64,000 nt of DNA. Origin: Candidatus Microgenomates bacterium. Its GTDB lineage: Bacteria > Patescibacteriota > JACPGU01. The stretch is from assembly GCA_016188915.1 (NCBI GenBank), contig JACPGU010000001.1, positions 123,106 to 187,105 on the forward strand. The letters run 5' to 3'. Below, piece after piece: positions 2,606-64,000 of this stretch (within the stretch, counting starts at the first letter, position 1; each line of letters starts with the position of its first letter). A model generated the notes under the pieces. That model had not been told where the DNA came from. It saw only the letters and a program-made list of their open reading frames with translations, and made no database searches. The position numbers and the translations under genes are program-made.

Positions 2606-2827
2606 ATGACAACCAAAAGCATTAATATACAAAAAAACTCTATTTCTCTACCTGATTCTTGGAAAAACACCCGGGCTTTTGTTTCTATTTCCTCCGATTC
2701 TTTAGTACTAAAAAAGATGAAACCTCTAGACCTGACCTCTATCAAAGAAAAAATGAAGGCCGCCGGCAAAAATATTACTCAAAAAGACATCTTTTCTGCC
2801 ACAAAAAAGGCTCGAAAACAAAAATAA
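2606..2827 (+). CDS. putative antitoxin (small protein immediately preceding and abutting PIN toxin gene)
   Basis: 73-aa ORF. Its stop TAA is immediately followed by ATG of the PIN gene at 2828. Gene order antitoxin-toxin is typical of VapBC-like modules. No specific fold recognised. Confidence 0.45.
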   Translation: MTTKSINIQKNSISLPDSWKNTRAFVSISSDSLVLKKMKPLDLTSIKEKMKAAGKNITQKDIFSATKKARKQK

Positions 2828-3244
2828 ATGAATATTGTCTTAGATACCAATATCATCATTTCGGGACTTTTGTGGAAAGGAAACGCAAAAGTTCTTTTTG
2901 ATTTCATTGAAGAAAACGAATTTACTATTTGTTTAACTCCCAAAATACTTGACGAAATAAAACGAGTTTTGGAGTATCCTAGAATAAAAAAACAACTCGA
3001 AAAAGTCTCTCTAGAGATTAATGAAGTACTCTTTTTTCTCTTGCAATATTCTGAAATATATTCTGATATAGAAATTTTTAAAGTAGTAGCCGACGACCCT
3101 TCTGACGATATGTTTGTCAATTGCGCTCTTCTCTGTGGCTCTCAATATATTATCTCTGGCGATCAGCATCTGTTGAAAATAAAAAAGTTTCAAAATGTGG
3201 CTATACTAACGGTAAGAGAATTTTTAGAAAAACAAAACCCATGA
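2828..3244 (+). CDS. PIN-domain protein (VapC-like toxin)
   Basis: N-terminal LDTNIII, central DDPSDD..VNCAL and IISGDQHLL are acidic-residue signatures of PIN nucleases. Confidence 0.75.
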   Translation: MNIVLDTNIIISGLLWKGNAKVLFDFIEENEFTICLTPKILDEIKRVLEYPRIKKQLEKVSLEINEVLFFLLQYSEIYSDIEIFKVVADDPSDDMFVNCALLCGSQYIISGDQHLLKIKKFQNVAILTVREFLEKQNP

Positions 3245-3798
3245 AAACAAAAACCAAATTCTACTTCTACTTATTATTAAATTTTCCAGGTATTGCGACG
3301 CACGAACTGTCGCATGCTATTTTCTGCTGGCTTTCGGGAGTAAAGGTGACGAAAGTCGTCTTCTTTCAATTCAAAAATCCTCCGGGCTTCGTGGAGCACC
3401 ACCAGCCTCGTGGCGTTCTTCAATCATTTTTCATCTCCTTCGGCCCCTTCTTTTTTGGTAGTTTTGTTTCTCTTTCTATGTTCTGGATTGTAAGTTACAT
3501 GTTGAGAAGTTCTTTTTCTTCATACTTAATACCTGATACTCAATACTTAATACTGATGTTTGTCTCTCTCTACCTCGGTCTCTCCGTCTCCCTCAATCTC
3601 TTTCCCAGCGACGAAGATGCGAAGGTCTTGCTCTCCAATGTCAATTATCATGTCTTGCACCGTTTCAATCCCTTCGCCGTTCTGCTCTATCCTTTTGTTT
3701 TACTAATTCGTCTTTTTAATTTTCTCCGTCGCGTCCATTTTGACTGGGCGTATGCGATCTTTCTTTTTTTGCTAACCTGGTATTTCATCAATGAGTAG
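3241..3798 (+). CDS. multi-pass membrane protein with HExxH motif (putative membrane zinc metallopeptidase, DUF3267-like)
   Basis: Starts ATGA overlapping the PIN stop. THELSHAIFCWLSG contains HExxH, followed by several hydrophobic segments. Confidence 0.5.
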   Translation: MKTKTKFYFYLLLNFPGIATHELSHAIFCWLSGVKVTKVVFFQFKNPPGFVEHHQPRGVLQSFFISFGPFFFGSFVSLSMFWIVSYMLRSSFSSYLIPDTQYLILMFVSLYLGLSVSLNLFPSDEDAKVLLSNVNYHVLHRFNPFAVLLYPFVLLIRLFNFLRRVHFDWAYAIFLFLLTWYFINE

Positions 3799-3825
3799 GA
3801 CACGACGTTCGACCTCGTGTCCTAG
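3796..3825. repeat. palindromic repeat family 1, copy 1 (TAGGACACGACGTTCGACCTCGTGTCCTA, one arm mismatch)
   Basis: Near-perfect 29-nt palindrome. Related copies at 10223-10253 and 49105-49151. Confidence 0.7.
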
Positions 3826-3828
3826 TCA

Positions 3829-3857
3829 TTGAGAGATAAGACAGTGTCTGTTATAAT
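3829..3857 (+). promoter_or_regulatory. sigma70-like promoter TTGAGA-17bp-TATAAT for the Cys-rich gene pair
   Basis: TTGAGA 3829-3834, 17-nt spacer, TATAAT 3852-3857. GGAGA RBS at 3885-3889 then GTG 3896. Confidence 0.5.
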
Positions 3858-3895: not shown

Positions 3896-4195
3896 GTGGG
3901 CGAACCCAATGAGATCGTTAACAACCTTGTCGATCCTGAATGTAAATCTTGCCAAGGGACTGGCAAATGTCCCGATGATGATTGCGATGGCGGATTTATT
4001 CCCGGTGATATCGATGCGGAATGCGATCTCCCCCTCGAGATGCAACACATGAGCACCCCCGATCCTTGCAGGATATGCTTTGGAACCGGCAAATGTCTTT
4101 GCGTTCTGCTCAAAGAAAGTCCGGAAAGATGGGGGTCCGTGATCTTCGGAGAAGAGCAGTGGGAAAAAATGGAGAAAGAAAAGACTACGCCATGA
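3896..4195 (+). CDS. small cysteine-rich protein with two CxxCxGTGxC motifs (DnaJ zinc-finger-like); GTG start
   Basis: CKSCQGTGKCPDDDC and CRICFGTGKCLC motifs. Good RBS spacing to GTG. Confidence 0.55.
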   Translation: MGEPNEIVNNLVDPECKSCQGTGKCPDDDCDGGFIPGDIDAECDLPLEMQHMSTPDPCRICFGTGKCLCVLLKESPERWGSVIFGEEQWEKMEKEKTTP

Positions 4196-4398
4196 CCGCT
4201 ACAAAACGCTCGAAAGATTCTTATGCCGATCCAACATGCCCAAGATGCCAGGGCGATGGCAAATGCAATAAATGTGGCGGAGCAAAGACTATACGCTACG
4301 GCAGAGATTCATATATCCTCGGCTATGACGATTTTTGCGACAGATGTAATGGTACCGGTTTCTGCTCTTGTCGCCGACCGCCCAATCCCCTTTTCTGA
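4192..4398 (+). CDS. small cysteine-rich protein, paralog of upstream gene (translationally coupled, ATGA overlap)
   Basis: MTATKRSKDSYADPTCPRCQGDGKCNKCGG...FCDRCNGTGFCSC. ATG 4192 overlaps the TGA of the previous gene. Confidence 0.55.
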   Translation: MTATKRSKDSYADPTCPRCQGDGKCNKCGGAKTIRYGRDSYILGYDDFCDRCNGTGFCSCRRPPNPLF

Positions 4399-4446
4399 TT
4401 TTATGACCACGCGAAACATTTTTATCCTCATCGAACACCGCTCAAA

Positions 4447-4476
4447 AAGAGACCCGCAAGGGTCTCTTAATTTTTT
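4447..4476 (+). terminator. rho-independent terminator after Cys-rich gene pair
   Basis: AAGAGACCC-GCAA-GGGTCTCTT hairpin followed by AATTTTTT. Confidence 0.6.
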
Positions 4477-4518
4477 AGCGCGATTGGCAATTTGACCTAG
4501 CGCCCTATTGTCACTTTT

Positions 4519-4629
4519 CTCCTCATCAATCTCCCCCTCACTTTTTTTTAAAAAATTTCAAACACGACCTATAACTCACGGCTTGCCCCGCATCCTTCAT
4601 GGTGCGTGGGTCGTGAGTTATAGGTCATA
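4519..4629. repeat. repeat family 2, copy A
   Basis: Shares the core ctcatcaatctcc ... ttcaaacacgacctataactcacggc plus the spacer with the copy at 6044-6147, and contains a divergent inverted partner arm (tcgtgagttataggtc). Confidence 0.6.
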
Positions 4630-4701: not shown

Positions 4702-5940
4702 TTATTTCTTGATGGCCTTTTTTATGGCCAGAGCCAAAGCGGCATACAGCTCCGCGGGGGTATAGTCACTCGGTGGCTTCAGACCCTGGATAGCCAAATG
4801 TGCTCGCGCAAAATCTTTCAGTTTCCGCGTGTGCTCAGCGATTGCTATCAGAGCCAAGACCTTGTCGTGATTAAACACTATCCTCGCCATTTCCTTGCGC
4901 GCGGCAGAGAGACACCTCTGACTCAGCCGTATCTTTACGATGGACAGCCGGGCGCGATCCACATCGGCAGAGCTTCGATAATCATTGCATTCAAGACAAG
5001 AATGTACGCTCTTTACAAGAGCATCAACCTCTTCTCGAGTGACGCCAGGAACTGTGGCTTCTGCGCAAAGAAGCTCAATGTAGTCAGAACCATACATCCA
5101 GTTGCTTCTAAGCGACTTTTTTAGGTCATCCGCTTTTTTGGTGTAGGAAGCTCCTTTCCCTTCGTCATTCTTCGCCAGATAGGCGGAAGCGATGAATCTG
5201 TAGGCCAAAGTTTTTTGGTAATCATTCGAAATGTTTTCGGCCACTTCTTCCGCCCCCACAAAATCCCCTATTTTGAGCTGCGCTTTCACTAATGAAAATC
5301 GCGCTTTTGCCATAATCCCAGAGTTACGAATGAGGCAAAGGTTCATCAGGGCTTCCTCTATAAACTTCGCATCCCCGCTTTTTTCTGCCATCATTGCTCG
5401 GCATCGCACTCTGCTTGGGGAGGATGCGGAAGTAAGTTTCCCAAGAGCCTTCTCCGCAAGACCGTCATGCCCGTGCTCAAGCAGAGACTCCACAAGAGAG
5501 GCGGCCATCCAACCATCCTGACGGGCCGACTGAACTTCTTCTAGCGCCCGGTCAAAATCCGCCTTCTCGCCTGTGATGGCCGCGATATAGCAAAGCGTCT
5601 CTTCTTGTCGAGACCATTGCATATCTTTCCTTTTCTCGAGCAACAATCGCACTTCAACGATCAATTCTTCCAATCTTGTCTGAAGTGCAATTTGATTATA
5701 GATGTCAAGCAAAATTTGCAGATCCCGATCGAGACCTGAGCCCCCACCACCTTCCTCGAGTAATCGGTTGTAGTCGCGAAGCAAAACCTGCAATGTCTGA
5801 CTGGAATCTGGGTCGGCGACGATTCTTTCGAGTAATTGTCTTAATTGTCCTACCGTTGGCCTTCTTCCCATCACGCACCTCTTGTTAAAGAATTTCCGCC
5901 AGTAGTTTATTGTGGCGAAATAGCACGCCAAGCGCGCCAT
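4702..5940 (-). CDS. hypothetical alpha-helical protein, higher GC than flanks (likely start at 5871)
   Basis: Long ORF rich in Ala/Leu/Arg/Glu. No recognised domain. Flanked on both sides by repeat family 2. Possible paralog at 58809-60134. Confidence 0.45.
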   Translation of the reverse strand: MARLACYFATINYWRKFFNKRCVMGRRPTVGQLRQLLERIVADPDSSQTLQVLLRDYNRLLEEGGGGSGLDRDLQILLDIYNQIALQTRLEELIVEVRLLLEKRKDMQWSRQEETLCYIAAITGEKADFDRALEEVQSARQDGWMAASLVESLLEHGHDGLAEKALGKLTSASSPSRVRCRAMMAEKSGDAKFIEEALMNLCLIRNSGIMAKARFSLVKAQLKIGDFVGAEEVAENISNDYQKTLAYRFIASAYLAKNDEGKGASYTKKADDLKKSLRSNWMYGSDYIELLCAEATVPGVTREEVDALVKSVHSCLECNDYRSSADVDRARLSIVKIRLSQRCLSAARKEMARIVFNHDKVLALIAIAEHTRKLKDFARAHLAIQGLKPPSDYTPAELYAALALAIKKAIKK

Positions 5941-6043: not shown

Positions 6044-6147
6044 TTTCTCATCAATCTCCACCTAATTTCAAATCAAATTCAAACACGACCTATAACTCAC
6101 GGCCCACGCACCATGAAGGATGCAGGGCAAGCCGTGAGTTAGCGTAG
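6044..6147. repeat. repeat family 2, copy B (internal spacer inverted relative to copy A)
   Basis: Same left arm acacgacctataactcacggc. The spacer ccacgcaccatgaaggatgcagggcaa is the reverse complement of the copy A spacer. Confidence 0.6.
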
Positions 6148-6322: not shown

Positions 6323-7318
6323 CTACACCCCCAGCGGGGTTCTGCTCTTGGCGCTTTCCGCGCTCTTAGTGCTTTTCTTTTTCCCCTCTTCCTTTTTCCT
6401 CCACTCCCTGTAATCCACGACGAAATCCCAATCGGGGTCTTTAAGGAATCTCAACCATCGCTCGGGGGAAATCTCGTTGAGCCACTCTATGGCGGCAAGG
6501 ATGTCGGACTTCGTCGGCCTGTCATCACCCGTACCCGATATCGCGTCTCTCAATTTCTCTAATGCCTTCGCCACAGCCAGCCGGTACCTTTCAAAAAGAA
6601 TCTCCGCCACGCTCTGGCCTGCGTGTCTTTCCGCGAGAAGCAACAGATCCTTGATCCGCTCCGAAAATATGTTACCTAGTGGTCGCAGGGGTTCTCTTAG
6701 GGAACCGTCTTTAACATAAAAGAAGTCGCCTAAAAAAGAGATCCCCTTCTTCCAATTTGCCGCCCTGAAGTGACAAGAGAGCCATTCGGTGGAAGGGTCA
6801 GGGTAATCCGAATACAGCTTCAGAAGGAATTTTTGACTCCTCATCCAGTAAAATTCTGTCATACCTACGATGCCCAGAAAATTACCGAGGGAGTACTCCT
6901 TTACTTCTTTGTTGCCCTCGTCCAAGATGAAAACCTTGCAATTATTCATGGAGGACCCTTGCCTGATATGTCCGAGAATGATTTCTCGCATTCTTTTTTC
7001 AACTACGCCGGATCCTTCATTCCTGCTCCAGTAAGCAATCTTTTTGACGATCAGAATCGCCTTGTGGTGGTAATAGGCAGCATTAAACGCCGCCATCAAA
7101 GAAGCAAGGGATAGGGGGATAGAGGAAGAACTGATTATTGGATGCATATGCTTCCAATAAATCAAATCGCCGAGAAAGAATAATCCGCCAAGCAAACTGA
7201 GAACGGCCCAACAAAGATACCAGAACATCACAACCTCCTTTTGCCTTGCTGTCTTGTCCTTTTTGCCTTTTTTTTCGAGTTGCCTCGAGATCATGCAAAC
7301 CGAACTACAGCCCGACAA
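6323..7318 (-). CDS. hypothetical membrane-anchored protein, higher GC
   Basis: Long ORF with an N-terminal hydrophobic segment. No recognisable motif. Confidence 0.4.
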   Translation of the reverse strand: MSGCSSVCMISRQLEKKGKKDKTARQKEVVMFWYLCWAVLSLLGGLFFLGDLIYWKHMHPIISSSSIPLSLASLMAAFNAAYYHHKAILIVKKIAYWSRNEGSGVVEKRMREIILGHIRQGSSMNNCKVFILDEGNKEVKEYSLGNFLGIVGMTEFYWMRSQKFLLKLYSDYPDPSTEWLSCHFRAANWKKGISFLGDFFYVKDGSLREPLRPLGNIFSERIKDLLLLAERHAGQSVAEILFERYRLAVAKALEKLRDAISGTGDDRPTKSDILAAIEWLNEISPERWLRFLKDPDWDFVVDYREWRKKEEGKKKSTKSAESAKSRTPLGV

Positions 7319-7424: not shown

Positions 7425-7455
7425 GTCAAAAAGGGGTGGGTTAGAAACCCGCCCC
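7425..7455 (-). terminator. rho-independent terminator downstream of fusA
   Basis: GGGGTGGGTT-AGAA-ACCCGCCCC hairpin (G-U pairs in RNA) followed on the minus strand by TTTTTG. Confidence 0.6.
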
Positions 7456-7504
7456 TACAATTTCTTAATTTTTTATTTTTTTATTTTTTTATTTTCTCCC
7501 CCCC

Positions 7505-9601
7505 CTACCGTCCCTCCGCCTTCTCTTTTGCCTTAATCCCGATGATAGTTTCCGCCACATTGCGAGGCACTTCGGCATAATGGTCGAATTCCATCGTGGA
7601 AGAACCGCGGCCTTGCGTCATCGAACGCAGATTGGTCGTGTAGCCAAACATTTCACCGAGTGGCACATAAGCATCGATAAATTTAATCGTGCCTCGGTCG
7701 CCGGACTCCAAAATCTGGCCGCGTTTGGCGTTCAAATCGCCCATAATATCGCCCAAGAATTCTTCTGGCGCCAGCACTTCCACTTTCATTACCGGTTCCA
7801 AAATTACCGGATCGGCCTTTTTCACGCCGTCTTGAAAGGCCATACTGGCTGCGATTTTGAAGGCCATTTCAGATGAGTCCACTTCGTGGAAAGAACCGTC
7901 AAAAACCGCCGCTTTCAGATCTATCACTGGATAGCCAGCGATTACTCCCCTGTCCATAGCTTCTTTGATACCTTTTTCAATCGCCGGAACATATTCGCGC
8001 GGAATAGCGCCACCGACGATTTTGTTCTCAAATTCAAAACCTTTGCCTGCTTCCAGAGGCGATAATTCCAACCAACAATGGCCGTATTGGCCACGACCGC
8101 CGGATTGACGGATGAATTTACCCTCGCACTGAACCAATTTGCGAATAGCCTCTTTGTAGGCCACTTGTGGTTTGCCCACATTAGCCTCCACTTTGAATTC
8201 TCTTTTCATACGATCTACAATAATTTCCAAGTGCAATTCGCCCATGCCGGAAATAATCGTTTCTCCAGTCTCTTGATCACCTTTGATGCGAAAGGTTGGA
8301 TCTTCTTCGGCTAGCTTGGAGAGCGCCACGCCCATTTTTTCCTGATCGGCTTTAGTCTTTGGTTCAATCGCTACCGAAATCACTGGCTCGGGAAAAGTGA
8401 TATTTTCCAAAATAACAGGGTTGGTTTCATCGCACAAAGTATCGCCGGTAAAGGTAGATTTTAATCCTACCGCTGCCGCAATCTCACCAGCTGAAACTTC
8501 CGAGACATCTTCCCTCTGCGCGGCGTGGAGTCTGACGATACGGCCTATTCTTTCTCTTTCGCCCTTCGTTGAATTATAAACATAGGAGCCGGCTGTCAAT
8601 TTCCCTGAATAAACGCGGAAAAAGCAAAGCTTACCAACAAAAGGGTCAGAGGCTATCTTGAAAGCTAATGCTGCAAAAGGTTCTTTCTCGGAGGCTAAGC
8701 GTGTCACTTCTTCACCGGTTTTGGGATGGGTGCCTTTCACCGGCGGTTTGTCTAGTGGCGAGGGTAAATAATACATGATGGCGTCTAGCAAAGTTTCTAC
8801 AATGACGCCTCGACCATCGCCACCCATAACGGGGAAAAAATTGCCGGTCAGAGTCGCCTTGCGGATAGCTGAACGCAATTCTTCGGTCGTTAGTTCTTCG
8901 CCGCCCAGATATTTTTCCATCAATTTCTCGTCAAATTCCACCGCTTTCTCAATCAGTTCTGAACGATATTTGGCTACTTGTTCAGCCATTTCCGCCGGTA
9001 CTTCGCTTTCGATTAATTGATGGTCGGTGAATTCTTTGTAGGTATAGGATTTCAGCGCCACCAGATCCACCACACCATTGATGTCTTTTTCGAAACCAAT
9101 CGGCAGTTGAATCGGGTAGGCTTCTTTGCGAAGTCTTTTGCGAATAGAATCCAAAGATTTATAAAAATCGCCACCGGTTTGATTGATTTTGTTGATAAAG
9201 CAAATGCGTGGTACACCATATTTGTCGCCTTGACGCCAGACGGTCTCCGACTGCGGTTCCACGCCCATTTTGCCGTCAAAGATAACGGCCGCGCCATCCA
9301 AAACACGCAAAGATCGCTCTACCTCAACGGTAAAGTCAACGTGCCCCGGCGTGTCAATAATATTGAAACGATGGTCTTTCCAAAAACAAGTGGTCGCCGC
9401 CGAAGTAATCGTGATACCTCGCTCGCGCTCTTGCTCCATCCAGTCCATAGTCGCCTCGCCTTCGTGTACCGCGCCGATTTTGTGCTTTTTCCCGGTACGG
9501 TAAAGAATGCCTTCGGTCACCGTCGTCTTACCAGCGTCGATATGGGCAATGGTGCCGAAATTGCGAACATGGTCGAGGGGATATTTTGTCTCTTCTGTCA
9601 T
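7505..9601 (-). CDS. fusA: elongation factor G
   Basis: [22 protein letters not shown]-like motifs. Full-length EF-G similarity. Ends with TAG. Confidence 0.97.
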
Positions 9602-9794
9602 TGTGCGTTTTTCTAATAATCTAGTGCTATTTAAAAGTTATAATTTTTGAATTTTGTAATTTTTGAATTTTTAAACAATTTCTAATGTTCTAATTTTTAA
9701 AAAATTAAAAATTGTAAAAATTAAAAATTGGCGTTCAGGACGAAGCCTTGCCTATTATACGCAGAATAGATACTGGAAGCAAGAAAATTTTTTA

Positions 9795-9823
9795 TTGCTA
9801 TTGTTTTGCCAAAGATTTATAAT
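9795..9823 (+). promoter_or_regulatory. sigma70-like promoter TTGCTA-17-TATAAT for third Cys-rich gene
   Basis: TTGCTA 9795-9800, 17-nt spacer, TATAAT 9818-9823. RBS AGAGAGG at about 9872. Confidence 0.5.
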
Positions 9824-9890
9824 AATGGCAACTTCAAGAACCTGAAGGCTGGGTTTTTGGAGAAATTTAAAAAGAGAGGCGGTGGAAAAG

Positions 9891-10148
9891 ATGTGCAAGT
9901 CGGCTGAAGAAATGCAGGGAGCACAGAGAGCCATGGATATTCCGAGGAAAAGGCCTCCCGAAGGGGAAGCTCATATAACGTTCACTCCCTATGTGAAGGG
10001 TTCTGGTTGCGACATCTGTTATGGCACCGGCGCCTGCATGGCCTGTCATGATAATGGCGGAGAATGTTCTTCCTGTCATGGGACTAGGCTCTGTATCGCC
10101 TGCGAAGGAAAGAAAGGAGAGGAGAAAGAATCCAAAGGAGTGTCATGA
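9891..10148 (+). CDS. small cysteine-rich protein, third member of CxxCxGTGxC family
   Basis: GCDICYGTGACMACHDNGGEC and CSSCHGTRLCIAC. An alternative GTG start at 9882 is possible. Confidence 0.55.
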   Translation: MCKSAEEMQGAQRAMDIPRKRPPEGEAHITFTPYVKGSGCDICYGTGACMACHDNGGECSSCHGTRLCIACEGKKGEEKESKGVS

Positions 10149-10176: not shown

Positions 10177-10220
10177 AAAAGACCCGTTCGCCGGTTTCGC
10201 CGACAACGGGTCTTTTCTGT
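10177..10220 (+). terminator. rho-independent terminator after third Cys-rich gene
   Basis: AGACCCGTT...AACGGGTCT stem followed by TTTTCTGTT. Confidence 0.55.
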
Positions 10221-10222
10221 TA

Positions 10223-10253
10223 CTAGGACACGACGTTCGACGTCGTGTCCTAG
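10223..10253. repeat. palindromic repeat family 1, copy 2 (perfect 31-nt palindrome CTAGGACACGACGTTCGACGTCGTGTCCTAG)
   Basis: Perfect palindrome seen directly. Confidence 0.7.
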
Positions 10254-10256
10254 TAG

Positions 10257-10300
10257 TACAAAAAAAATACCGCGCGGTTGCTCGCGCGGTGAATATTTTT
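10257..10300. terminator. bidirectional hairpin terminator (ACCGCGCG-GTTGCT-CGCGCGGT flanked by A-run and T-run)
   Basis: 8-bp GC stem with an A8 run upstream and a T9 run downstream. Lies downstream of the lipoprotein gene on the minus strand. Confidence 0.55.
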
Positions 10301-10313
10301 TTTGCTTGATGCC

Positions 10314-11432
10314 TTACTCGGAGGAGAGCTTCCTCTCCCAGTAAAGCCTTCCCGGGAATTCCTCGGTGGTTGGCTCCTGGTAGTCGGTCGCCTCCCACTC
10401 CAAGGACTCGGGGAGAATATTGATATTTATGCAAAATTCTCCCCCTTCCACATCGATTGGGTTCACGAGCCGGAAGTAGTCCCAGCTCGAATCGATGGCC
10501 TCCGGCTTCGTTTGAAGCTTGAAGCATTCCCGATACTGGCCGGCAGGAATCCCCTCCGCCGAGAGGGAAAAGCTAACGCTTCCTGTGTCGCCCGGCAAAA
10601 TCCTATAGCCGGTAGCATCAGAAACCACCGTCCTGTCGTACCAGGACGAAGAGTCAAAAAACTGACTCCCGGTAGCGTTAACCGTCACCATATACACGCG
10701 GTTCTTCCTGTTGGACAGGTTGTACCACGGCATATTCCCCGTATTCTTCACCCGAACTTCGGGGAAAAAATACGGCCAACTCCCGCCACGCTGCCCGGAC
10801 ACCAAGGTCACCGAGATTTCCTGATCGGTCACAGCGGCGTACTTCGGCTCGGTGCCTTCCGGCAGGACACCGATTTCTAATTCGGCCGTGGGAATCCAGA
10901 AGCTGTCCTTGCTCAAAACGGACAGGTCTTCGACAGTGGCGCGAACAGTGATGGTTTTGGTGCTTCCCTGCGCCACAGCCGGAAGAATAACCGCCATCGT
11001 CGCCACACCCCAATCGTTGGTCGTGACGATTTCGGTCGCGCCCAATTGAATTGAGCCGTCGTAAACTCGAAACGTCACCGGAGCCTTGAGCCGCGAGTAA
11101 TCGCAACCCTCTCTGCAGCTCCCGTGGATTTTTGCTCCAGTCGTCATTTCTTCTCCAGCCATGCCCACCTGATAGCTGTAATCCAGATAGGTGTCATCGG
11201 AAACCGCCCCCGAGCTTGCCGCCGAAATCCAGGAAACCACATCGCCTTCAGCGATGATGATGTTGCCCGGATTCTCCGGAATGGGTGGCTCCATGCCTTC
11301 GTCCAGGGTGGGCGGAACGGGCACAACCGGTGTCCCTCCCCCGCCTCCGCAACCGGATAGAAGAAGAATCGCAATCAGGAGCAAGAAAATGCCTCCCACC
11401 ACCGCCAACCCCACCTTTTTCATCTTTTTCAA
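10314..11432 (-). CDS. putative secreted lipoprotein, higher GC
   Basis: N-terminal MKKMKKVGLAVVGGIFLLLIAILLLSGC (signal peptide plus lipobox-like LSGC) then a Gly/Pro-rich linker. No known domain. Confidence 0.55.
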   Translation of the reverse strand: MKKMKKVGLAVVGGIFLLLIAILLLSGCGGGGGTPVVPVPPTLDEGMEPPIPENPGNIIIAEGDVVSWISAASSGAVSDDTYLDYSYQVGMAGEEMTTGAKIHGSCREGCDYSRLKAPVTFRVYDGSIQLGATEIVTTNDWGVATMAVILPAVAQGSTKTITVRATVEDLSVLSKDSFWIPTAELEIGVLPEGTEPKYAAVTDQEISVTLVSGQRGGSWPYFFPEVRVKNTGNMPWYNLSNRKNRVYMVTVNATGSQFFDSSSWYDRTVVSDATGYRILPGDTGSVSFSLSAEGIPAGQYRECFKLQTKPEAIDSSWDYFRLVNPIDVEGGEFCININILPESLEWEATDYQEPTTEEFPGRLYWERKLSSE

Positions 11433-11647: not shown

Positions 11648-12124
11648 CTAATATCTCCCGAAATGGGCGTAGGCGCGATTGCTTTCGGCCATTTTGTGAG
11701 TATCTTCTTTTTTCTTGATTGCTCCACCCTGATTGTCAGAAGCCAAAATCAATTCTTCGGCCAGCTCTTCTGGTGTAGAACGACCCTTTTTAGCCCGCAC
11801 TACCCCTAATATCCATTTGATAGCAAAGACAACTTTTTGGTCTTTTTTGACTTCCATCGGCACCTGGTAATTGGCCCCTCCGATACGACGACTACGCACT
11901 TTTAGGCTGGGAGAGACATTTTTAATAGCATTGTTAAAAACATCGATACCCTTTTTGTCAGTCTTTTTTTCCACTATTTCCAAAGCATCATAAAAAATAC
12001 GAGTAGCCAAAGATTTTTTGCCACCCCACATCAGATTGTTGATAAATTTGGCAACCACAACTGACCCATAAACAGGGTCTGGCTGGATCTCTCTTTTTGG
12101 CGCTTGTTTTGAACCTCGGCTCAT
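11648..12124 (-). CDS. rpsG: 30S ribosomal protein S7
   Basis: Full-length S7 similarity (KFINNLMWGGKKSLA..., VPMEVKKDQ...). Confidence 0.95.
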   Translation of the reverse strand: MSRGSKQAPKREIQPDPVYGSVVVAKFINNLMWGGKKSLATRIFYDALEIVEKKTDKKGIDVFNNAIKNVSPSLKVRSRRIGGANYQVPMEVKKDQKVVFAIKWILGVVRAKKGRSTPEELAEELILASDNQGGAIKKKEDTHKMAESNRAYAHFGRY

Positions 12125-12216
12125 GGCTAAAAAATTAATAAAATAAAAAAGTAAAAAATTAAGAATTCTGCAATTATTATTTTCTTAATTTCTTATTTTC
12201 TTAATTTCTTAATTCC

Positions 12217-12630
12217 TTATTTCCGCTTTGCTCCATACCTAGAACGACCTTGCTGTCTTTTTTCTACCCCTCCAGCATCCAACATGCCACGCACAATATG
12301 ATATCTAACCCCCGGTAGGTCTTTTACTCTGCCACCACGGATAACCACTACTGAGTGTTCTTGAAGATTGTGCCCGATCCCCGGGATGTAGGCTGTCACT
12401 TCCATACCATTAGTCAATCTGACACGAGCGATTTTACGCAAAGCGGAGTTTGGCTTTTTCGGTGTCATCGTCGTCACCTTGGTGCAAACACCGCGCTTAA
12501 AAGGCGAACCTTTTTTACTCTCCGTAGTGCGACCTTTGATGGAATTAAAACCCAAAAGCAAAGCTGGCGCCTTGCTTTTTTTTGCGGCGCTCTTTCTCCC
12601 CTTGCGAATTAATTGATTAATGGTAGGCAC
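12217..12630 (-). CDS. rpsL: 30S ribosomal protein S12
   Basis: [11 protein letters not shown]...[10 protein letters not shown]...[14 protein letters not shown] typical of S12. Confidence 0.95.
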
Positions 12631-12745
12631 AAAAATAAAATAAAATTTCTAATTAACCTAATTGACCTAATTTCTAATTAATTAAATCAATTAGAAATTT
12701 TGCGAACATTTAACATTATAGCAAAAACAACGCGCTATTTCAACC

Positions 12746-47240: not shown

Positions 47241-48206
47241 TTAGATTTCAGATTTTAGATTTATGAATCCACCGATAATCTCTTCTGTTTCTTTATAGTC
47301 TTTCGCCTCCATCAGTTTCTTCCGCAGATCGCTTGCTCCGGGAAAATCCGCGCAATAAATCTTGAAAAACTTTTTCATCTTGGCGAATTTCACCCCTTTG
47401 CCCCAAAATTTTTCAAATAATTTCGCATGCTCAATTGCGAGCTTTAATTTTTTAATTTTTTGGTTTTTTACTTTCTTATTTTCAAAAATCCAAGGATTTT
47501 TGAATATCCCTCTCCCAATCATCACGCCATCACAACCGGTTTTTTCGGCCAAAGCCTTCCCTTCTTCAATTGAGCCGACATCGCCATTGCCGATGATCAA
47601 AACTCCCGAACCCTTGGCGATTTCCACCGCGTCTTTTATCCTCTCCCAACGCGCCGGCACCTTGGACATTTCTTTTCTTGTTCGCGCGTGAATAATGATG
47701 GCTTCTGGTTTTTCGGCGAGGAGTTCGGGCAGCCATTCTTCCAAAATATCGGTATTAAATCCCAGCCGTGTCTTGATAGACAAAGGAAGATTCGGCGCGC
47801 CGGCTTTGGCCGCCCTTATTATCTCGCGCGCCAATTGCGGATTTTTCATCAGCGCCGCGCCCGCGCCTTGTTTTTCTATTGTTTTGTCCGGACAACCCAT
47901 ATTGATATCCAGCCCGTCAAAGCCGAGCTTTGCCACCAAACGCGCCGCCTCTTCCATTTTTTCTGGATTGGCCGTAAAAAGCTGGGCGATAATTGGTCTT
48001 TCCTGTTCTGTAAATCGCAAATTTTTCAAAAGCTTTTTTCGACCCACCGAGCACAGCCCATTGGCCGAAACGAATTCGGTATAGAGCACATCCGGCTTGC
48101 CGAAACGCACCACCATTTGCCGAAAAACCGGATCAGTCACATCCGCCATCGGAGCCAAGACGAAAAAAGGCTTCGGTAATTTGTGCCAAAAAGATTTATT
48201 TGCCAT
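47241..48206 (-). CDS. tRNA-dihydrouridine synthase
   Basis: FVLAPMADVTDPVFR, LDINMGCP, Dus TIM-barrel signature. Confidence 0.85.
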   Translation of the reverse strand: MANKSFWHKLPKPFFVLAPMADVTDPVFRQMVVRFGKPDVLYTEFVSANGLCSVGRKKLLKNLRFTEQERPIIAQLFTANPEKMEEAARLVAKLGFDGLDINMGCPDKTIEKQGAGAALMKNPQLAREIIRAAKAGAPNLPLSIKTRLGFNTDILEEWLPELLAEKPEAIIIHARTRKEMSKVPARWERIKDAVEIAKGSGVLIIGNGDVGSIEEGKALAEKTGCDGVMIGRGIFKNPWIFENKKVKNQKIKKLKLAIEHAKLFEKFWGKGVKFAKMKKFFKIYCADFPGASDLRKKLMEAKDYKETEEIIGGFINLKSEI

Positions 48207-49104: not shown

Positions 49105-49151
49105 CTAGGACACGACGTTCGACGTCGTGTCCCCAATTCGACGTCGTGTCC
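49105..49151. repeat. palindromic repeat family 1, copy 3 (with partial tandem duplication of one arm)
   Basis: CTAGGACACGACGTTCGACGTCGTGTCC followed by CCAATTCGACGTCGTGTCCCC. Confidence 0.7.
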
Positions 49152-49226: not shown

Positions 49227-50099
49227 TCATTTCCCTAGATTTTTCTGAAAAATTATTAGCGCTTCTTCTAATGCCCATTCAGGATTTTCAGAAGAAAAAT
49301 TCTCAAAATTTAAATCTCGGCGAAACCGATCGGACAAGGCCGCCAGCCCCGCCAAAATTGTCAATTGCTGAGCAGGATTGTCCATATTGTGACCACCGAA
49401 CTGGTAACCCTCATTCTTGGTGACATGGCCATTCATGGGGTTAATGCCACAGGCGTCTCCCGGACAACTGACATTGAGCCAGCCCGTGTCATAATCAATA
49501 GAGGCGCGGAAGTTATATTTCTCAAACTTGCTTAGCGGTCCATACATTCTCCGATGAGCCCGAATCATCGCCTCTACCATTTCCGGACGAGAGGTCTGAG
49601 CCGGAAAAGAACTAAGATATCGTCCCAGACTTAGACTGAAATCGCCACTTATGGATCCTCCGTGCATATCTTTCAAAGTGGCGAAATCGATCGTCATGAT
49701 TTGTGGCTCCTTGGATGAGGTATTCTCCTTCGGATGAAAGGCCCAGAAGCCAAAGAAGCATAGACTGGCCGAAATGGCAAAGGCTTCTTGGTAGTCACAC
49801 CAAAAATCGTATCCACCTCCTTCGCAACAGGGGCATCTTCCTTCGTGATACGGATGCTTTTTGCTCCCTCCGCAGAACCGACACTTTTCTTCCGTTCGTT
49901 TTTTCACCCTCGGAATAAGAGCGGAAAGCACGATGAAATCTTTTGGTTGCCTTTTTACCGGAACAAAAGCGCCATCAAAGCCAAAACCTTGGCTAAAGTC
50001 AGAACAAAATGCCTGAAAGCCAAATTTTTTTTTGAAATCTGCGATGATAGGCGCTTGAGGCGCACTCTTTTGCCGTCCCAAGAAAAACGGTACCAGCAC
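49227..50099 (-). CDS. hypothetical Cys-containing protein, higher GC; 5' region overlaps an alternative frame (possible frameshift)
   Basis: CRFCGGSKKHPYHEGRCPCCEGGGY cluster, no known domain. Overlapping ORF 49955-50245 in another frame across an A9 run. Confidence 0.35.
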   Translation of the reverse strand: MLVPFFLGRQKSAPQAPIIADFKKKFGFQAFCSDFSQGFGFDGAFVPVKRQPKDFIVLSALIPRVKKRTEEKCRFCGGSKKHPYHEGRCPCCEGGGYDFWCDYQEAFAISASLCFFGFWAFHPKENTSSKEPQIMTIDFATLKDMHGGSISGDFSLSLGRYLSSFPAQTSRPEMVEAMIRAHRRMYGPLSKFEKYNFRASIDYDTGWLNVSCPGDACGINPMNGHVTKNEGYQFGGHNMDNPAQQLTILAGLAALSDRFRRDLNFENFSSENPEWALEEALIIFQKNLGK

Positions 50100-50257: not shown

Positions 50258-52498
50258 TTAGCCTCTTTTTTTAATCCGCAAACTATTGACTACCACCGAC
50301 ACGGAAGAAAAGGCCATGGCTCCCGCCGCAATCATCGGACTCAAGAGCCCTACCGCCGCCAGTGGAATAGCCGCCGCATTGTAGGCAAAGGCCCAGAAAA
50401 GATTTTGCTGTATAACACGAAAAGTTTTTTGCGAAAGAGCAATCGCTTCTACCACCTTCATCGGACTGCCTTTGACAATCACGATGTTGCCCGCTTCAAT
50501 GGCGATGTCCGTTCCCGTTCCCATGGCGATGCCGAAATCTGATTGCGCCAAAGCCGGCGCGTCGTTGATACCATCGCCGATAAAAGCGATTTTCTTCCCC
50601 TCCTCCTGCAATTTTTTGACAATAGCCGCTTTTTCCTGTGGCAGAACTTCGGCAAAAATCTGATCTATTTTAAGTTCTCGGCCGATAGCTTCGGCGGTTT
50701 TTTGATTGTCGCCGGTAATCATTATTGCCGCGATATTTTTATTTTTTAATTGTCTGATCGCTTCTACCGCGTCCGGCTTTACCGTGTCGGCGATAGCGAC
50801 AAGACCCAAAATCTCTTTTTCTCTGACAATCATCACCACTGTCTTGGCTTCAGCTTGGAGTTTCCGCAAAAAAGTTTCATCCTTCAATTTTACGCCCAAT
50901 TCTTCCGCCATTTTCTCGTTGCCTACCGCCACCTGTTTCCCGCCAATAAATCCTTTAACTCCCTTGCCGGCCACATTTTCAAATTTTTCCACTTCCAGCA
51001 ATTTCACTCCGTCTTTCTCCGCCCTCTCCACGATCGCTCGCGCCAGAGGATGGTCAGAATTTTTGTCGAGCGAGGCGGCTACTGTCAGCACACCCCGAGG
51101 AGACACCTCGGGGCTCCCCGAGGTGTCTCCTCGGGGGATAACAACGATATCCGTTACCACCGGCTTCCCCTCCGTCAGGGTCCCGGTTTTGTCAAAAATC
51201 ACCGCGTCAATTTTTTTGCCTTTTTCTAAAGACTCGCCGTTTTTGATGAGGATTCCTTTTTTCGCTCCCAGCCCTGTCCCGACCATGATGGCCGTAGGCG
51301 TAGCCAGACCGAGCGCGCAAGGACAAGCGATGACCAAGACCGCCACGGCTGGCACGAAAGCGGAAGCGATGTCACCTGTCGCCCAATACCAAATGCCAAA
51401 AGTAATAATAGCAATCAAGAAAACCACCGGCACAAAGATAGAAGAGATCTTGTCCGCCAATTTTTGAATCGGCGCTTTTTGCGTCTGCGCGTCAGAGACC
51501 ATTTGGACGATTTGGGAGAGGACAGTTTCAGCCCCCACCTTGGTCGCTTTCATAATAATCACGCCGTTGATATTGATGGTGGCGGCAAAAACTCCATCGA
51601 AGATATTTTTTTCTACCGGCATACTCTCGCCGGTCAGCATAGATTCATCAATAGTCGTCTCTCCTTTTGTAATTTCTCCGTCAGTCGGGATTTTTTCACC
51701 CGGCAAAACACGCAGGGTGTCTCCTACTTGCACTTGTTCAATCGGAATCTCTTTTTCTTGGTCACCTTCTACTAGTCGCGCGGTCTTGGCGCCCAATTTC
51801 AGCAATTTCTCAATCGCCTCACTCGCTTGTCCGCGACTTTTGGCTTCAAAATAGCGCCCTAGTAAAATCAGCGCCGTAATCACCGCGCCGATTTCAAAAT
51901 ACAGGTCCTTTCCTCCGGAAGACAATTCCCAAAAGCTAAAGATCAGAGCCGCCAAAGTACCGACAGAAATCAGCGTATTCATATCGGCGGAAAAATAGCG
52001 TAATTGTTTGGCCGCGCCACGGTGAAATTCCCAACCGATGACAAGAATGACGACGGTGGACAATACTGCTTCAATAATCATGCTGGCGTTGAAACCAAAA
52101 TACTCCCAGGGCAATTCTATTTTGCCCATGGCTATAATCAGTGGCGGTAAGGCTAGAATAAGCGCGATAATTGCCCTGTTTCTGGCTTTCAAAGTTTCAG
52201 CCGATCCCGAAGGATGGTGATGGGAGTGGTCCGCCTTATGAGACGAAGCATGCCTGCCCGCCGAAATGGAGGGCTTCGTCTCTACATGATCCATTACGGC
52301 TTTGTAGCCAACCTTTGCTACTGCCTGATGGAGATCGTGTTCGGAAGCCAGATTTTCGTCAAATTCTACCGTGGCGCTCCGCAACGCCAGATTGACCGAA
52401 GCGGATTTGACGCCCGGCACTTTTTGTAGCGCTTTTTCGTTTTTTAGAACACAGCTGGCGCAATGCAAACCCTCAATGGCAAAAGTTGTTTTTTTCAT
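50258..52498 (-). CDS. copA: copper-translocating P-type ATPase
   Basis: N-terminal HMA (GLHCASC), CPC in TM6, DKTGTLT, GDGINDAP. Carries an in-frame 44-nt palindromic insertion. Confidence 0.92.
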   Translation of the reverse strand: MKKTTFAIEGLHCASCVLKNEKALQKVPGVKSASVNLALRSATVEFDENLASEHDLHQAVAKVGYKAVMDHVETKPSISAGRHASSHKADHSHHHPSGSAETLKARNRAIIALILALPPLIIAMGKIELPWEYFGFNASMIIEAVLSTVVILVIGWEFHRGAAKQLRYFSADMNTLISVGTLAALIFSFWELSSGGKDLYFEIGAVITALILLGRYFEAKSRGQASEAIEKLLKLGAKTARLVEGDQEKEIPIEQVQVGDTLRVLPGEKIPTDGEITKGETTIDESMLTGESMPVEKNIFDGVFAATININGVIIMKATKVGAETVLSQIVQMVSDAQTQKAPIQKLADKISSIFVPVVFLIAIITFGIWYWATGDIASAFVPAVAVLVIACPCALGLATPTAIMVGTGLGAKKGILIKNGESLEKGKKIDAVIFDKTGTLTEGKPVVTDIVVIPRGDTSGSPEVSPRGVLTVAASLDKNSDHPLARAIVERAEKDGVKLLEVEKFENVAGKGVKGFIGGKQVAVGNEKMAEELGVKLKDETFLRKLQAEAKTVVMIVREKEILGLVAIADTVKPDAVEAIRQLKNKNIAAIMITGDNQKTAEAIGRELKIDQIFAEVLPQEKAAIVKKLQEEGKKIAFIGDGINDAPALAQSDFGIAMGTGTDIAIEAGNIVIVKGSPMKVVEAIALSQKTFRVIQQNLFWAFAYNAAAIPLAAVGLLSPMIAAGAMAFSSVSVVVNSLRIKKRG
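51093..51136. repeat. 44-nt perfect palindrome inside copA coding sequence (CCCCGAGGAGACACCTCGGGG-CT-CCCCGAGGTGTCTCCTCGGGG)
   Basis: Seen directly. Encodes PRGDTSGSPEVSPRG between DKTGTLTEGKP and the N-domain. Confidence 0.8.
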
Positions 52499-60246: not shown

Positions 60247-60289
60247 GAACACGACCTATAACTCACGGCCGTGAGTTATAGGTCGTGTT
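60247..60289. repeat. repeat family 2, copy C (40-nt perfect palindrome ACACGACCTATAACTCACGGCCGTGAGTTATAGGTCGTGT)
   Basis: Seen directly. Same arm sequence as copies A and B, but with no spacer. Confidence 0.7.
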
Positions 60290-62826: not shown

Positions 62827-62982
62827 CTACAACGCTGGCCACTTCGTATGCCAATCGGTCGCGTTCTGGAAAGCCATGCCGGCGGAGATTAATTTTTCCT
62901 CGCCGAAACGAGGGCCGAGTATTTGGAGCCCGACAGGCAGAGGGGTAGTTGGTAGTTGGTAGTTGGAGAAGATTTGGAAGCG
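62827..62982 (-). pseudogene. remnant of a reverse-transcriptase 3' end (no start codon), homologous to the C-terminus of the RT at 63684-64000
   Basis: Translates to ...LQILGPRFGEEKLISAGMAFQNATDWHTKWPAL* versus the RT ...SGLLGHGNAKKLEKLISIGIAFQNATDWHTKPPLLS*. Bounded upstream by an in-frame TGA. Confidence 0.4.
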
Positions 62983-63683: not shown

Positions 63684-64000
63684 TCAACTAAGTAATGGGG
63701 GCTTTGTGTGCCAATCGGTCGCGTTCTGGAAAGCAATGCCAATAGAGATTAGTTTTTCCAACTTTTTCGCATTTCCATGCCCCAAAAGCCCCGAATACGA
63801 AGCGAGTGTTTCGGGAGAAGGACATTCCGCTACTCTTTTCATCATACGCCTTTTTGTCGCAGTCCTCAATACTCTGTGGTCAGGGAAATGCACCCAGCCC
63901 AAGAAATCCAGACCGGACGACAAGGTGGCAACGAAAGTTTTGCGCGGATGAAGCTCCAGCTTTAATTTTTCTTTAAGAAATTCTGCAATTCGCGACAATT
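63684..64000 (-). CDS. reverse transcriptase, C-terminal part (gene continues beyond window end); DGR/retron/group-II-like RT
   Basis: LKLELHPRKTFVATLSSGLDFLGWVHF is the RT domain 7 / thumb junction motif (h-h-L-h-h-K-T, G-h-D-F-L-G). Confidence 0.6.
   Translation of the reverse strand, partial: LSRIAEFLKEKLKLELHPRKTFVATLSSGLDFLGWVHFPDHRVLRTATKRRMMKRVAECPSPETLASYSGLLGHGNAKKLEKLISIGIAFQNATDWHTKPPLLS

Follow-up and report, generated by a model that had tools for sequence, protein, structure and literature searches.

The 64-kb window analysed here (64,000 nucleotides of contig JACPGU010000001.1, from a Candidatus Microgenomates bacterium) contains three small open reading frames (ORFs) for cysteine-rich proteins, P1, P2 and P3, all on the plus strand and all inside the str gene cluster. 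An initial annotation of this DNA had reported them as ORFs of 99, 68 and 85 aa, and they are present with the coordinates and lengths given there. P1 (3896..4195, 99 aa) is annotated as the hypothetical protein MBI2448072.1 and begins with a GTG at 3896, 7 nt past AAAGGAGA. P2 (4192..4398, 68 aa) begins with ATG and is in no protein collection. P3 (9891..10148) has 85 aa when read from the ATG at 9891, and its NCBI entry, the hypothetical protein MBI2448077.1, has 88 aa from a GTG at 9882; the ATG is the better spaced of the two starts from GAGAGG. The reported ATGA overlap was borne out, with the TGA stop of P1 overlapping the ATG of P2 at 4192-4195. Because of this overlap, and because there is no good Shine-Dalgarno sequence near the P2 start, the arrangement fits a coupling of P1 and P2 translation by termination and reinitiation.

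The six cysteine motifs quoted in the initial annotation were found as stated, namely CKSCQGTGKC and CRICFGTGKC in P1, CPRCQGDGKC and CDRCNGTGFC in P2, and CDICYGTGAC and CSSCHGTRLC in P3, the last being only a near-variant of the pattern C..C.G.G.C. The cysteines form four pairs in each protein: 16/19, 25/30, 58/61 and 67/69 in P1, with an extra Cys43; 16/19, 25/28, 49/52 and 58/60 in P2; and 40/43, 49/52, 59/62 and 68/71 in P3, tightly spaced and all CxxC, with an extra Cys2. The additional cysteines would thus be enough for two Zn(Cys)4 sites per protein, as had been proposed, if zinc is bound. When the pairs are read as zinc knuckles, two or three of the four are canonical in each protein and their order is correct. 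The knuckles of P2 are CPRCQGDG, CNKCGGAK, CDRCNGTG and CSC; P1 has Cx4C as its second knuckle and CLC as its fourth; and P3 has one full CxxCxGxG among its four CxxC pairs. The proteins differ in charge, P1 being acidic (isoelectric point, pI, 4.25; net charge -12.5), P2 basic (pI 8.87) and P3 near neutral. P1 and P2 are paralogues (29% identity, BLASTP E 4e-5), and P3 has little in common with either beyond the motif, so the suggestion of a mobile or recently duplicated module is weak.

A promoter-like site and a terminator had been claimed for each locus, and both were found at P1-P2 and at P3. A sigma-70-like promoter for P1-P2 lies at 3829..3857 on the plus strand (TTGAGA-17-TATAAT with an extended TG, 11 of 12 consensus positions), and the corresponding intrinsic terminator at 4447..4468, also on the plus strand, has a 9-bp stem followed by AATTTTTT. 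The promoter of P3 is of the same type (9795..9823, plus strand; TTGCTA-17-TATAAT, 10 of 12). It is followed after the gene by a terminator-like hairpin at 10177..10216 on the plus strand, then UUUUCUGUU, a U-rich tail; the folding energy is -21.8 kcal/mol with a z-score of -4.2. This hairpin was not picked up by the consensus scan because its loop is long. A bidirectional terminator at 10268..10291 is common to the P3 side and to a convergent gene for a 372-aa orphan protein.

We considered whether the ORFs are chance reading frames and their motifs an accident of composition. The absence of orthologues, the omission of P2 by gene callers and an ambiguous P2 codon score would be compatible with this. 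The motif statistics are not: across all six reading frames of the window, C..C.G.G.C turns up five times, always within the P1-P3 ORFs, whereas 200 first-order Markov simulations averaged 0.005 occurrences, with no more than 1 in any of them. Random cysteine enrichment, which the initial annotation had named as a possible refutation, is therefore not borne out, and all five motifs lie in three ORFs that have a promoter, a Shine-Dalgarno sequence and a terminator. A hidden Markov model (HMM) built from relatives outside the window only, when run against 1174 six-frame window ORFs, gave 50.2 bits for P2 (E 1e-14), 31.9 for P1 and 23.4 for P3, and the next-best ORF had E 0.39. Matches of 23-50 bits to independent relatives, together with a BLASTP match of P2 to the relative P0025 (E 2e-10), are not expected of chance frames. 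A codon-usage log-odds score trained on 14 long window genes ranked the own frame best of six for P1 (+0.21) and P3 (+0.14), and an AlphaFold2 (AF2) model of P3 has a core pLDDT of 81-87. By the motif statistics and the profile matches, the chance reading is effectively refuted, and to judge from the sequence P1, P2 and P3 are real protein-coding genes.

From the same evidence, P2 appears to be an unannotated gene. With any of its eight possible starts it has no entry in a collection of 15 billion proteins, an exhaustive HMMER search returned no P2-like entry, and the Logan gene caller passed it over. Neither the overlapping ORF at 4223-4495 nor the alternative P2 starts are on record.

To place the proteins in a family, an exhaustive HMMER search with a P1-P3 profile was run over 1.84 billion representatives and found 67 proteins at E < 1e-3. 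Three groups of relatives can be distinguished: stand-alone proteins of 53-126 aa, proteins of lipoprotein-like type with the module at the C-terminus, and long proteins in which as many as 22 stretches match. The only long protein retrieved, P0008 (492 aa, 9 stretches), is made of CxxCHxG repeats. The motif is present in 26 of the 26 retrieved relatives, and the stand-alone ones carry the double-knuckle module. An alignment of 20 members, consisting of 17 small relatives and P1-P3, has the form CxxCxGxGxCxxCxGxG, a linker of 10-25 residues, and CxxCxGxGxCxxCxGxG again. At E <= 0.01, DUF7895 (PF25433) matches 16 of the 20 aligned members, with a best score of 29.5 bits, and one checked relative passes its cut-off of 27 bits. 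PF00684 (DnaJ_CXXCXGXG, the DnaJ central domain) matches 12 of the 20 at the same threshold; the relatives match it over the whole 65-position model with E-values of 1e-5 to 1e-8 and 19-35 bits, two of them above cut-off. The initial annotation had not recognised a described family here. In view of these matches that statement is wrong, and some relatives are labelled "DnaJ-class molecular chaperone" by JGI. The profile searches it had proposed thus relate P1-P3 to a known, functionally uncharacterised family, for which our literature search for DUF7895 found no paper.

The relatives, which are metagenomic, were found in several kinds of genomic context, and their protein clusters are tiny, of one or two proteins each. 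P0025 is the relative closest to P2: the two align without gaps at 33% identity, and both have CxC as the fourth knuckle. P0025 lies on a phage-like contig that also carries RecT and a large number of small ORFs. About 1 kb downstream on that contig (L003, 6903-7406) there is a second CxxCxGxG ORF (CEDCGGTG). P0022 is located in a phage between structural genes and DnaB/RusA replication genes, P0083 in an actinobacterial integrative conjugative element with FtsK, RepSA and an integrase, and other relatives at ordinary chromosomal sites. A scan of species-representative genome contigs with the P1-P3 profile gave one match, an ORF from Dormibacterota. This small double-knuckle ORF, P0081-like, lies in the metagenome-assembled genome contig DASQGJ010000024.1 (L007, 5980-6189) between gcvPA and gcvPB, and is a further case of the domain wedged within a conserved gene pair, here that of the glycine dehydrogenase subunits. 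The same profile had no match in the viral contigs of IMG/VR or in JGI metagenome contigs; tblastn against GenBank phages gave one weak match (E 0.01); and word-index searches with P2 alone, a 3-sequence profile and a 20-sequence profile returned self-matches or already-known relatives only. Two Logan contigs carry P1 and P3, but both derive from the same sample as the window and match it at 100% identity, so they are not independent evidence.

When the family profile was compared with the PDB, the best match was 1EXK, the cysteine-rich (CR) domain of E. coli DnaJ, with E 1.6e-5 and all four knuckles aligned. Comparison with the sequence of the E. coli DnaJ CR domain by hhalign gave 96% probability and E 5e-9. 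The core CxxCxGxG had been interpreted in the initial annotation as the DnaJ-type zinc-finger unit, and this knuckle-for-knuckle alignment agrees with it. Lower PDB matches were the UvrA C-terminal zinc finger (E 2e-5), other DnaJ entries, BSD2, anti-TRAP and Q-lambda (E 0.06). In Foldseek comparisons with two AF2 models, the top ranks were likewise taken by the DnaJ CR domain, BSD2, UvrA and anti-TRAP, none significantly. From these profile matches to the DnaJ CR domain, PF00684 and DUF7895, P1-P3 would be divergent, compact, stand-alone DnaJ-type CR domains.

The UvrA and Q-lambda matches bear on a different explanation, namely that P1-P3 are nucleic-acid-binding regulators whose knuckles contact DNA or RNA as in lambda Q or UvrA and control neighbouring or phage genes. 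It gains some ground from one relative that matches the PHROG "anti-termination protein Q-like" (E 7e-4), from relatives lying within phage early and replication modules, and from the basic P2 (pI 8.9). However, UvrA and Q align over just two knuckles while the DnaJ CR domain aligns over all four, P1 is strongly acidic (-12.5) and P3 near neutral, and there is no helix-turn-helix or other DNA-reading element in P1-P3. The repeat termed palindrome A, described below, is not a consistent operator either, being upstream of one locus and downstream of the other. We consider a regulatory role of this kind unlikely, with a minor share of the probability.

Several points weigh against the assignment to DnaJ-type CR domains. 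The individual proteins score poorly: PF00684 gives 14.4 bits for P1, 16.7 for P2 and no match for P3 against a gathering cut-off of 32.7, and DUF7895 gives 15.7 bits for P2, 11.5 for P3 and no match for P1 against a gathering cut-off of 27. All single-protein matches are sub-threshold (DnaJ_CXXCXGXG E 0.009-0.05, DUF7895 E 0.02, anti-TRAP E 0.007), and P1-P3 are below every Pfam and NCBIfam cut-off; for TIGR02349 (DnaJ/Hsp40) the score is 8.8 bits compared with a cut-off of 377. No orthologue of P1-P3 is present in any collection searched. The relatives that define the family were found with the P1-P3 profile, so the argument is partly circular. The codon score of P2 is ambiguous, its own frame not being favoured, and P2 is short and cysteine-rich. 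Finally, the fourth knuckle is CxC in P1 and P2 and the second is Cx4C in P1, and because of this one zinc site may be altered. Nevertheless, judged by the profile matches as a whole, P1-P3 are divergent members of the family catalogued as DUF7895 and PF00684 relatives. We assign a probability of roughly 0.6 to the reading that they are real genes for stand-alone DnaJ-type CR domains which work as zinc-stabilised protein-binding modules and belong to inserted accessory modules.

According to this reading, each of P1, P2 and P3 would be little more than one compact DnaJ-type CR zinc-finger domain, laid out as CxxCxGxGxCxxC, a linker and CxxCxGxGxCx(1-2)C. By homology to the DnaJ CR domain, the four Cys-pair knuckles would fold around two Zn(Cys)4 centres, with knuckles 1 and 4 and knuckles 2 and 3 paired; zinc binding and this pairing are predicted from the sequence. 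P1-P3 have no J domain, signal peptide, or enzyme-like, catalytic or membrane part, and there is no HPD-containing ORF in the window. Their role would be that of a zinc-stabilised protein-binding module, such as a holdase, an adaptor or an inhibitor of a partner protein. We favour a protein-binding role because the characterised stand-alone relatives act by binding proteins: ZnJ2/BSD2 binds zinc and has holding-chaperone activity on unfolded clients (PMC5818400), and anti-TRAP binds and blocks TRAP (PMC2896485). The opposite pI values of P1 and P2 (4.25 and 8.87) and their translational coupling suggest that the two cooperate as a 1:1 pair; an acidic and a basic protein translated in a coupled manner from one transcript would probably act together in equal amounts, with P3 expressed from its own promoter.

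The cysteine content of P1-P3, 9-12%, could also be taken to mean that the proteins are redox-active, as thiol-disulfide oxidoreductases with CxxC sites, or that they buffer metal as a store for zinc or heavy metals. In a passage of PMC5818400, the DnaJ cysteine-rich domain is cited as having reductase and oxidase activity in vitro; however, ZnJ2 had no reductase activity in the insulin assay of that study (PMC5818400). A Gly is conserved behind each CxxC, as is usual in zinc knuckles with a structural function. The cysteine content is far under that of metallothioneins, and the closest gene related to metals, for a P-type ATPase (50258-52498), lies some 40 kb away. We regard these functions as distinctly unlikely. 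A metallothionein identity as such was rejected. Assignment to a ZAS anti-sigma factor was also rejected: P1-P3 have no HxxxCxxC, and no sigma-factor match was found among the neighbouring genes. As for the anti-TRAP-like identity that had been suggested, membership fails, with 16.4 bits for P2 and 10.8 for P1 compared with a cut-off of 65 (NF058604 / PF15777).

The location of P1-P3 inside the str operon, as first described, was confirmed by NCBIfam equivalogs for its members, all on the minus strand: rpsJ (622-993), tuf (1040-2242), fusA (7505-9601), rpsG (11648-12124) and rpsL (12217-12630), with rpoC and rpoB beyond rpsL. The locus tags of the host genome are HYV44_007xx. This cluster (rpsL-rpsG-fusA-tuf-rpsJ) is broken at two points by inserted genes. 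The interval between tuf and fusA contains a putative antitoxin, a PIN_3 toxin, an M50B-like HExxH membrane protein, P1-P2 and two orphans, of 412 aa (4702-5940, minus strand) and 331 aa (6323-7318, minus strand). The interval between fusA and rpsG contains P3 and the 372-aa orphan (10314-11432, minus strand; 56% GC, and 68% GC at third codon positions, GC3). None of the three orphans has a Pfam, PHROG or PADLOC match, and PHROGs and PADLOC gave nothing useful for P1-P3 or the other neighbouring genes. All three are atypical in composition, and the 372-aa orphan has an N-terminal lipoprotein-like signal (…LLSGCGGGG).

Most of the inserted genes have 50-56% GC (PIN 32%) with GC3 up to 68%, compared with 44% for the window, which supports horizontal acquisition of the modules. 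P1-P3 would then be part of lineage-specific accessory modules of atypical base composition, inserted in the str cluster of a genome of the Candidate Phyla Radiation (CPR). An accessory nature is also indicated by the neighbours, which are the PIN toxin, the M50B-like membrane protein and the three orphans, and by the relatives in phage and in an integrative conjugative element. Every inserted gene, cysteine-rich or not, has a near-consensus promoter and a terminator of its own. Since unrelated neighbours are flanked in this way as well, the modular layout is a trait of the whole inserted region and not of the cysteine-rich genes alone. Between tuf and the cysteine-rich genes, a single unit at 2606-3798 (plus strand), with a perfect TTGACA-17-TATAAT promoter at 2558-2586, is made up of the 73-aa putative antitoxin (no Pfam match), the PIN_3 toxin and the M50B-like/DUF3267 HExxH membrane protein.

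The last of these genes, whose M50B-like match has E 1.5e-5, lies just upstream of P1 and is relevant to the proposal that the small, cysteine-rich ORFs are precursors of ribosomally synthesised and post-translationally modified peptides. They could be cysimiditide-like, with two CxxCxGxG motifs holding zinc and flanking a modified Asp, or some other peptide modified at Cys. Zinc binding has indeed been described for cysimiditide precursors, in which 14-22 residues separate two CxxCxGxG motifs (bioRxiv 10.1101/2024.10.02.616296). However, each domain here has eight cysteines in four knuckles, as in DnaJ, and not four, and the M50B-like gene belongs to a separate transcription unit that is cut off from P1 by palindrome A and a promoter. 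The genes adjoining P1-P3 include no maturase: neither a PIMT-type methyltransferase, a radical SAM enzyme, a cyclodehydratase nor a lanthipeptide enzyme is found among them, their Pfam matches being absent or unrelated. The check on maturation enzymes elsewhere, proposed in the initial annotation, had the same outcome, with none at the phage, integrative-element and chromosomal loci of the relatives that were examined. Peptide precursors are thus a very improbable reading of P1-P3, and stand-alone CR domains remain the preferred one.

Two families of palindromes accompany the inserted genes. Palindrome A (TAGGACACGACGTTCGACSTCGTGTCCTAG) is a REP-like hairpin (TAGGACACGACGTTCGACCTCGTGTCCTAGT) with three copies in the window compared with none expected. 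Copy 1 (3796..3826) lies 2 nt upstream of the -35 element of the P1-P2 promoter, and its RNA folds with -22.9 kcal/mol (z -5.9). Copy 2 (10224..10254) is downstream of the P3 terminator, and copy 3 (49106..49136) is just downstream of an ORF at 49227-50099 on the minus strand. This ORF (290 aa, MBI2448119.1) has a half-domain of the form CRFCGG-x11-CPCCEGGG, for which hhalign to the family gave E 1.7e-4 and a probability of 50%; an ORF with a CxxCxG knuckle therefore adjoins each of the three palindrome A copies. Palindrome B, at 4561..4627 after P2, is a compound hairpin of about 66 nt (fold -40.2 kcal/mol, z -8.7) and looks REP- or MITE-like. It has an inverted copy at 6082-6141, and the pair brackets the gene of the 412-aa orphan; the inverted 55-nt copies (4572-4626 and 6087-6141) are 96% complementary. 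A perfect 42-nt palindrome version of B occurs at 60248-60289, and a B-like copy at about 49172 lies beside the third copy of A. Rfam contains no known RNA matching the palindromes, and an exact search for palindrome A in JGI metagenomes gave no match.

The initial annotation had described the same architecture at each locus, with a repeat, a promoter, the genes, a terminator and another repeat, which does not hold. At P1-P2, palindrome A precedes the promoter, whereas at P3 it comes after the terminator. There is no palindrome before the P3 promoter; the DNA at that point is AT-rich and forms the upstream region of the divergent fusA. The element after P2 is palindrome B, which differs from palindrome A. 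Nor were further copies of the proposed cassette found, the genome, viral and metagenome scans giving no second copy. Palindrome A as an operator was rejected since its position is inconsistent between the loci, and an integron-like cassette was rejected since an integrase is lacking and the genes come with promoters of their own. We also formulated a more elaborate proposal, in which P1 and P2 would form a heterodimeric four-zinc module with P3 as a single-chain version, carried as cargo of a small mobile or recombining CPR unit with palindromes A and B at its junctions and acting on the translation or transcription machinery whose genes it interrupts. We hold it to be a long shot, at less than one chance in ten.

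Other repeats were recorded in the window. AT-rich tracts that repeat about every 8 nt (TTAATTTCTTATTTT…) occur at 7449-7510, 9640-9730, 12132-12238, 33127-33204 and 47436-47497. On the minus strand, fusA and rpsG are immediately preceded by the tracts at 9640-9730 and 12132-12238, and the tract at 7449-7510 comes directly after fusA; the tracts may be UP-element-like or curved DNA. A 56-nt unit (AGACATGAATAAAATTTCTAATTGATCTAATTTCTAATTGATC…) is present three times in tandem at 30263-30430, with related direct and inverted copies, for example at 12632-12696 and 30554-30588. Two-copy direct repeats of about 60 nt with 85-86% identity are found at 37109-37169 and 37538-37598 and at 62842-62899 and 63702-63759.

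The domain type and its compact architecture are already catalogued, among the PF00684 relatives and in DUF7895, yet they are uncharacterised. What is added here is three divergent members, one of them unannotated, of a class of mini-proteins, the stand-alone DnaJ-type zinc fingers, which is large, has hardly been studied and recurs across phages, integrative elements and accessory islets. The window also indicates that, in a reduced CPR genome, even a gene cluster as highly conserved as str can take in lineage-specific modules that have promoters of their own. The result is a refinement of annotation and not a new kind of system; it is fairly ordinary apart from the unusual location. A partner protein, if found, could reveal the job of a domain that is common in mobile elements.

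Among the closest known systems is the CR domain of type I DnaJ/Hsp40 (PF00684; 1EXK), whose four CxxCxGxG-type knuckles are all matched in order by the family profile, with a pair of Zn(Cys)4 centres expected. P1-P3 (68-99 aa) differ in lacking the J domain, the G/F region and the C-terminal substrate-binding domain. Knuckles 1 and 2 and knuckles 3 and 4 are one residue apart in the family, while E. coli DnaJ has 8 or 5 residues more, at these two places only, and the fourth knuckle is CxC in P1 and P2 unlike that of DnaJ. DUF7895 has the same double CxxCxGxGxCxxCxGxG, with matches at profile positions of about 4-25 and 52-74, and carries no assigned function. Anti-TRAP (RtpA) of Bacillus is likewise a small stand-alone CxxCxGxG zinc protein that binds another protein (PMC2896485), and its profile matches are weak. 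It has about 53 aa, two knuckles and one zinc per chain, in contrast to the four knuckles of P1-P3, and here there is no TRAP or trp context and the host is a CPR bacterium. Cysimiditide precursors are also small and have two zinc-binding CxxCxGxG motifs, but they are actinobacterial, they depend on a PIMT-like methyltransferase encoded next to them, and they require an Asp-Gly site that separates the two motifs; no such methyltransferase occurs among the neighbours of P1-P3. In BSD2/ZnJ2, too, a four-knuckle CR domain stands alone, with no J domain attached; it binds zinc and acts as a holding chaperone (PMC5818400). Its match to the family profile has an E-value of only 0.035-0.08, and the Pfam model BSD2_CRD has no match in P1-P3. 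Unlike P1-P3, it is eukaryotic and plastid-targeted, with Rubisco as its client.

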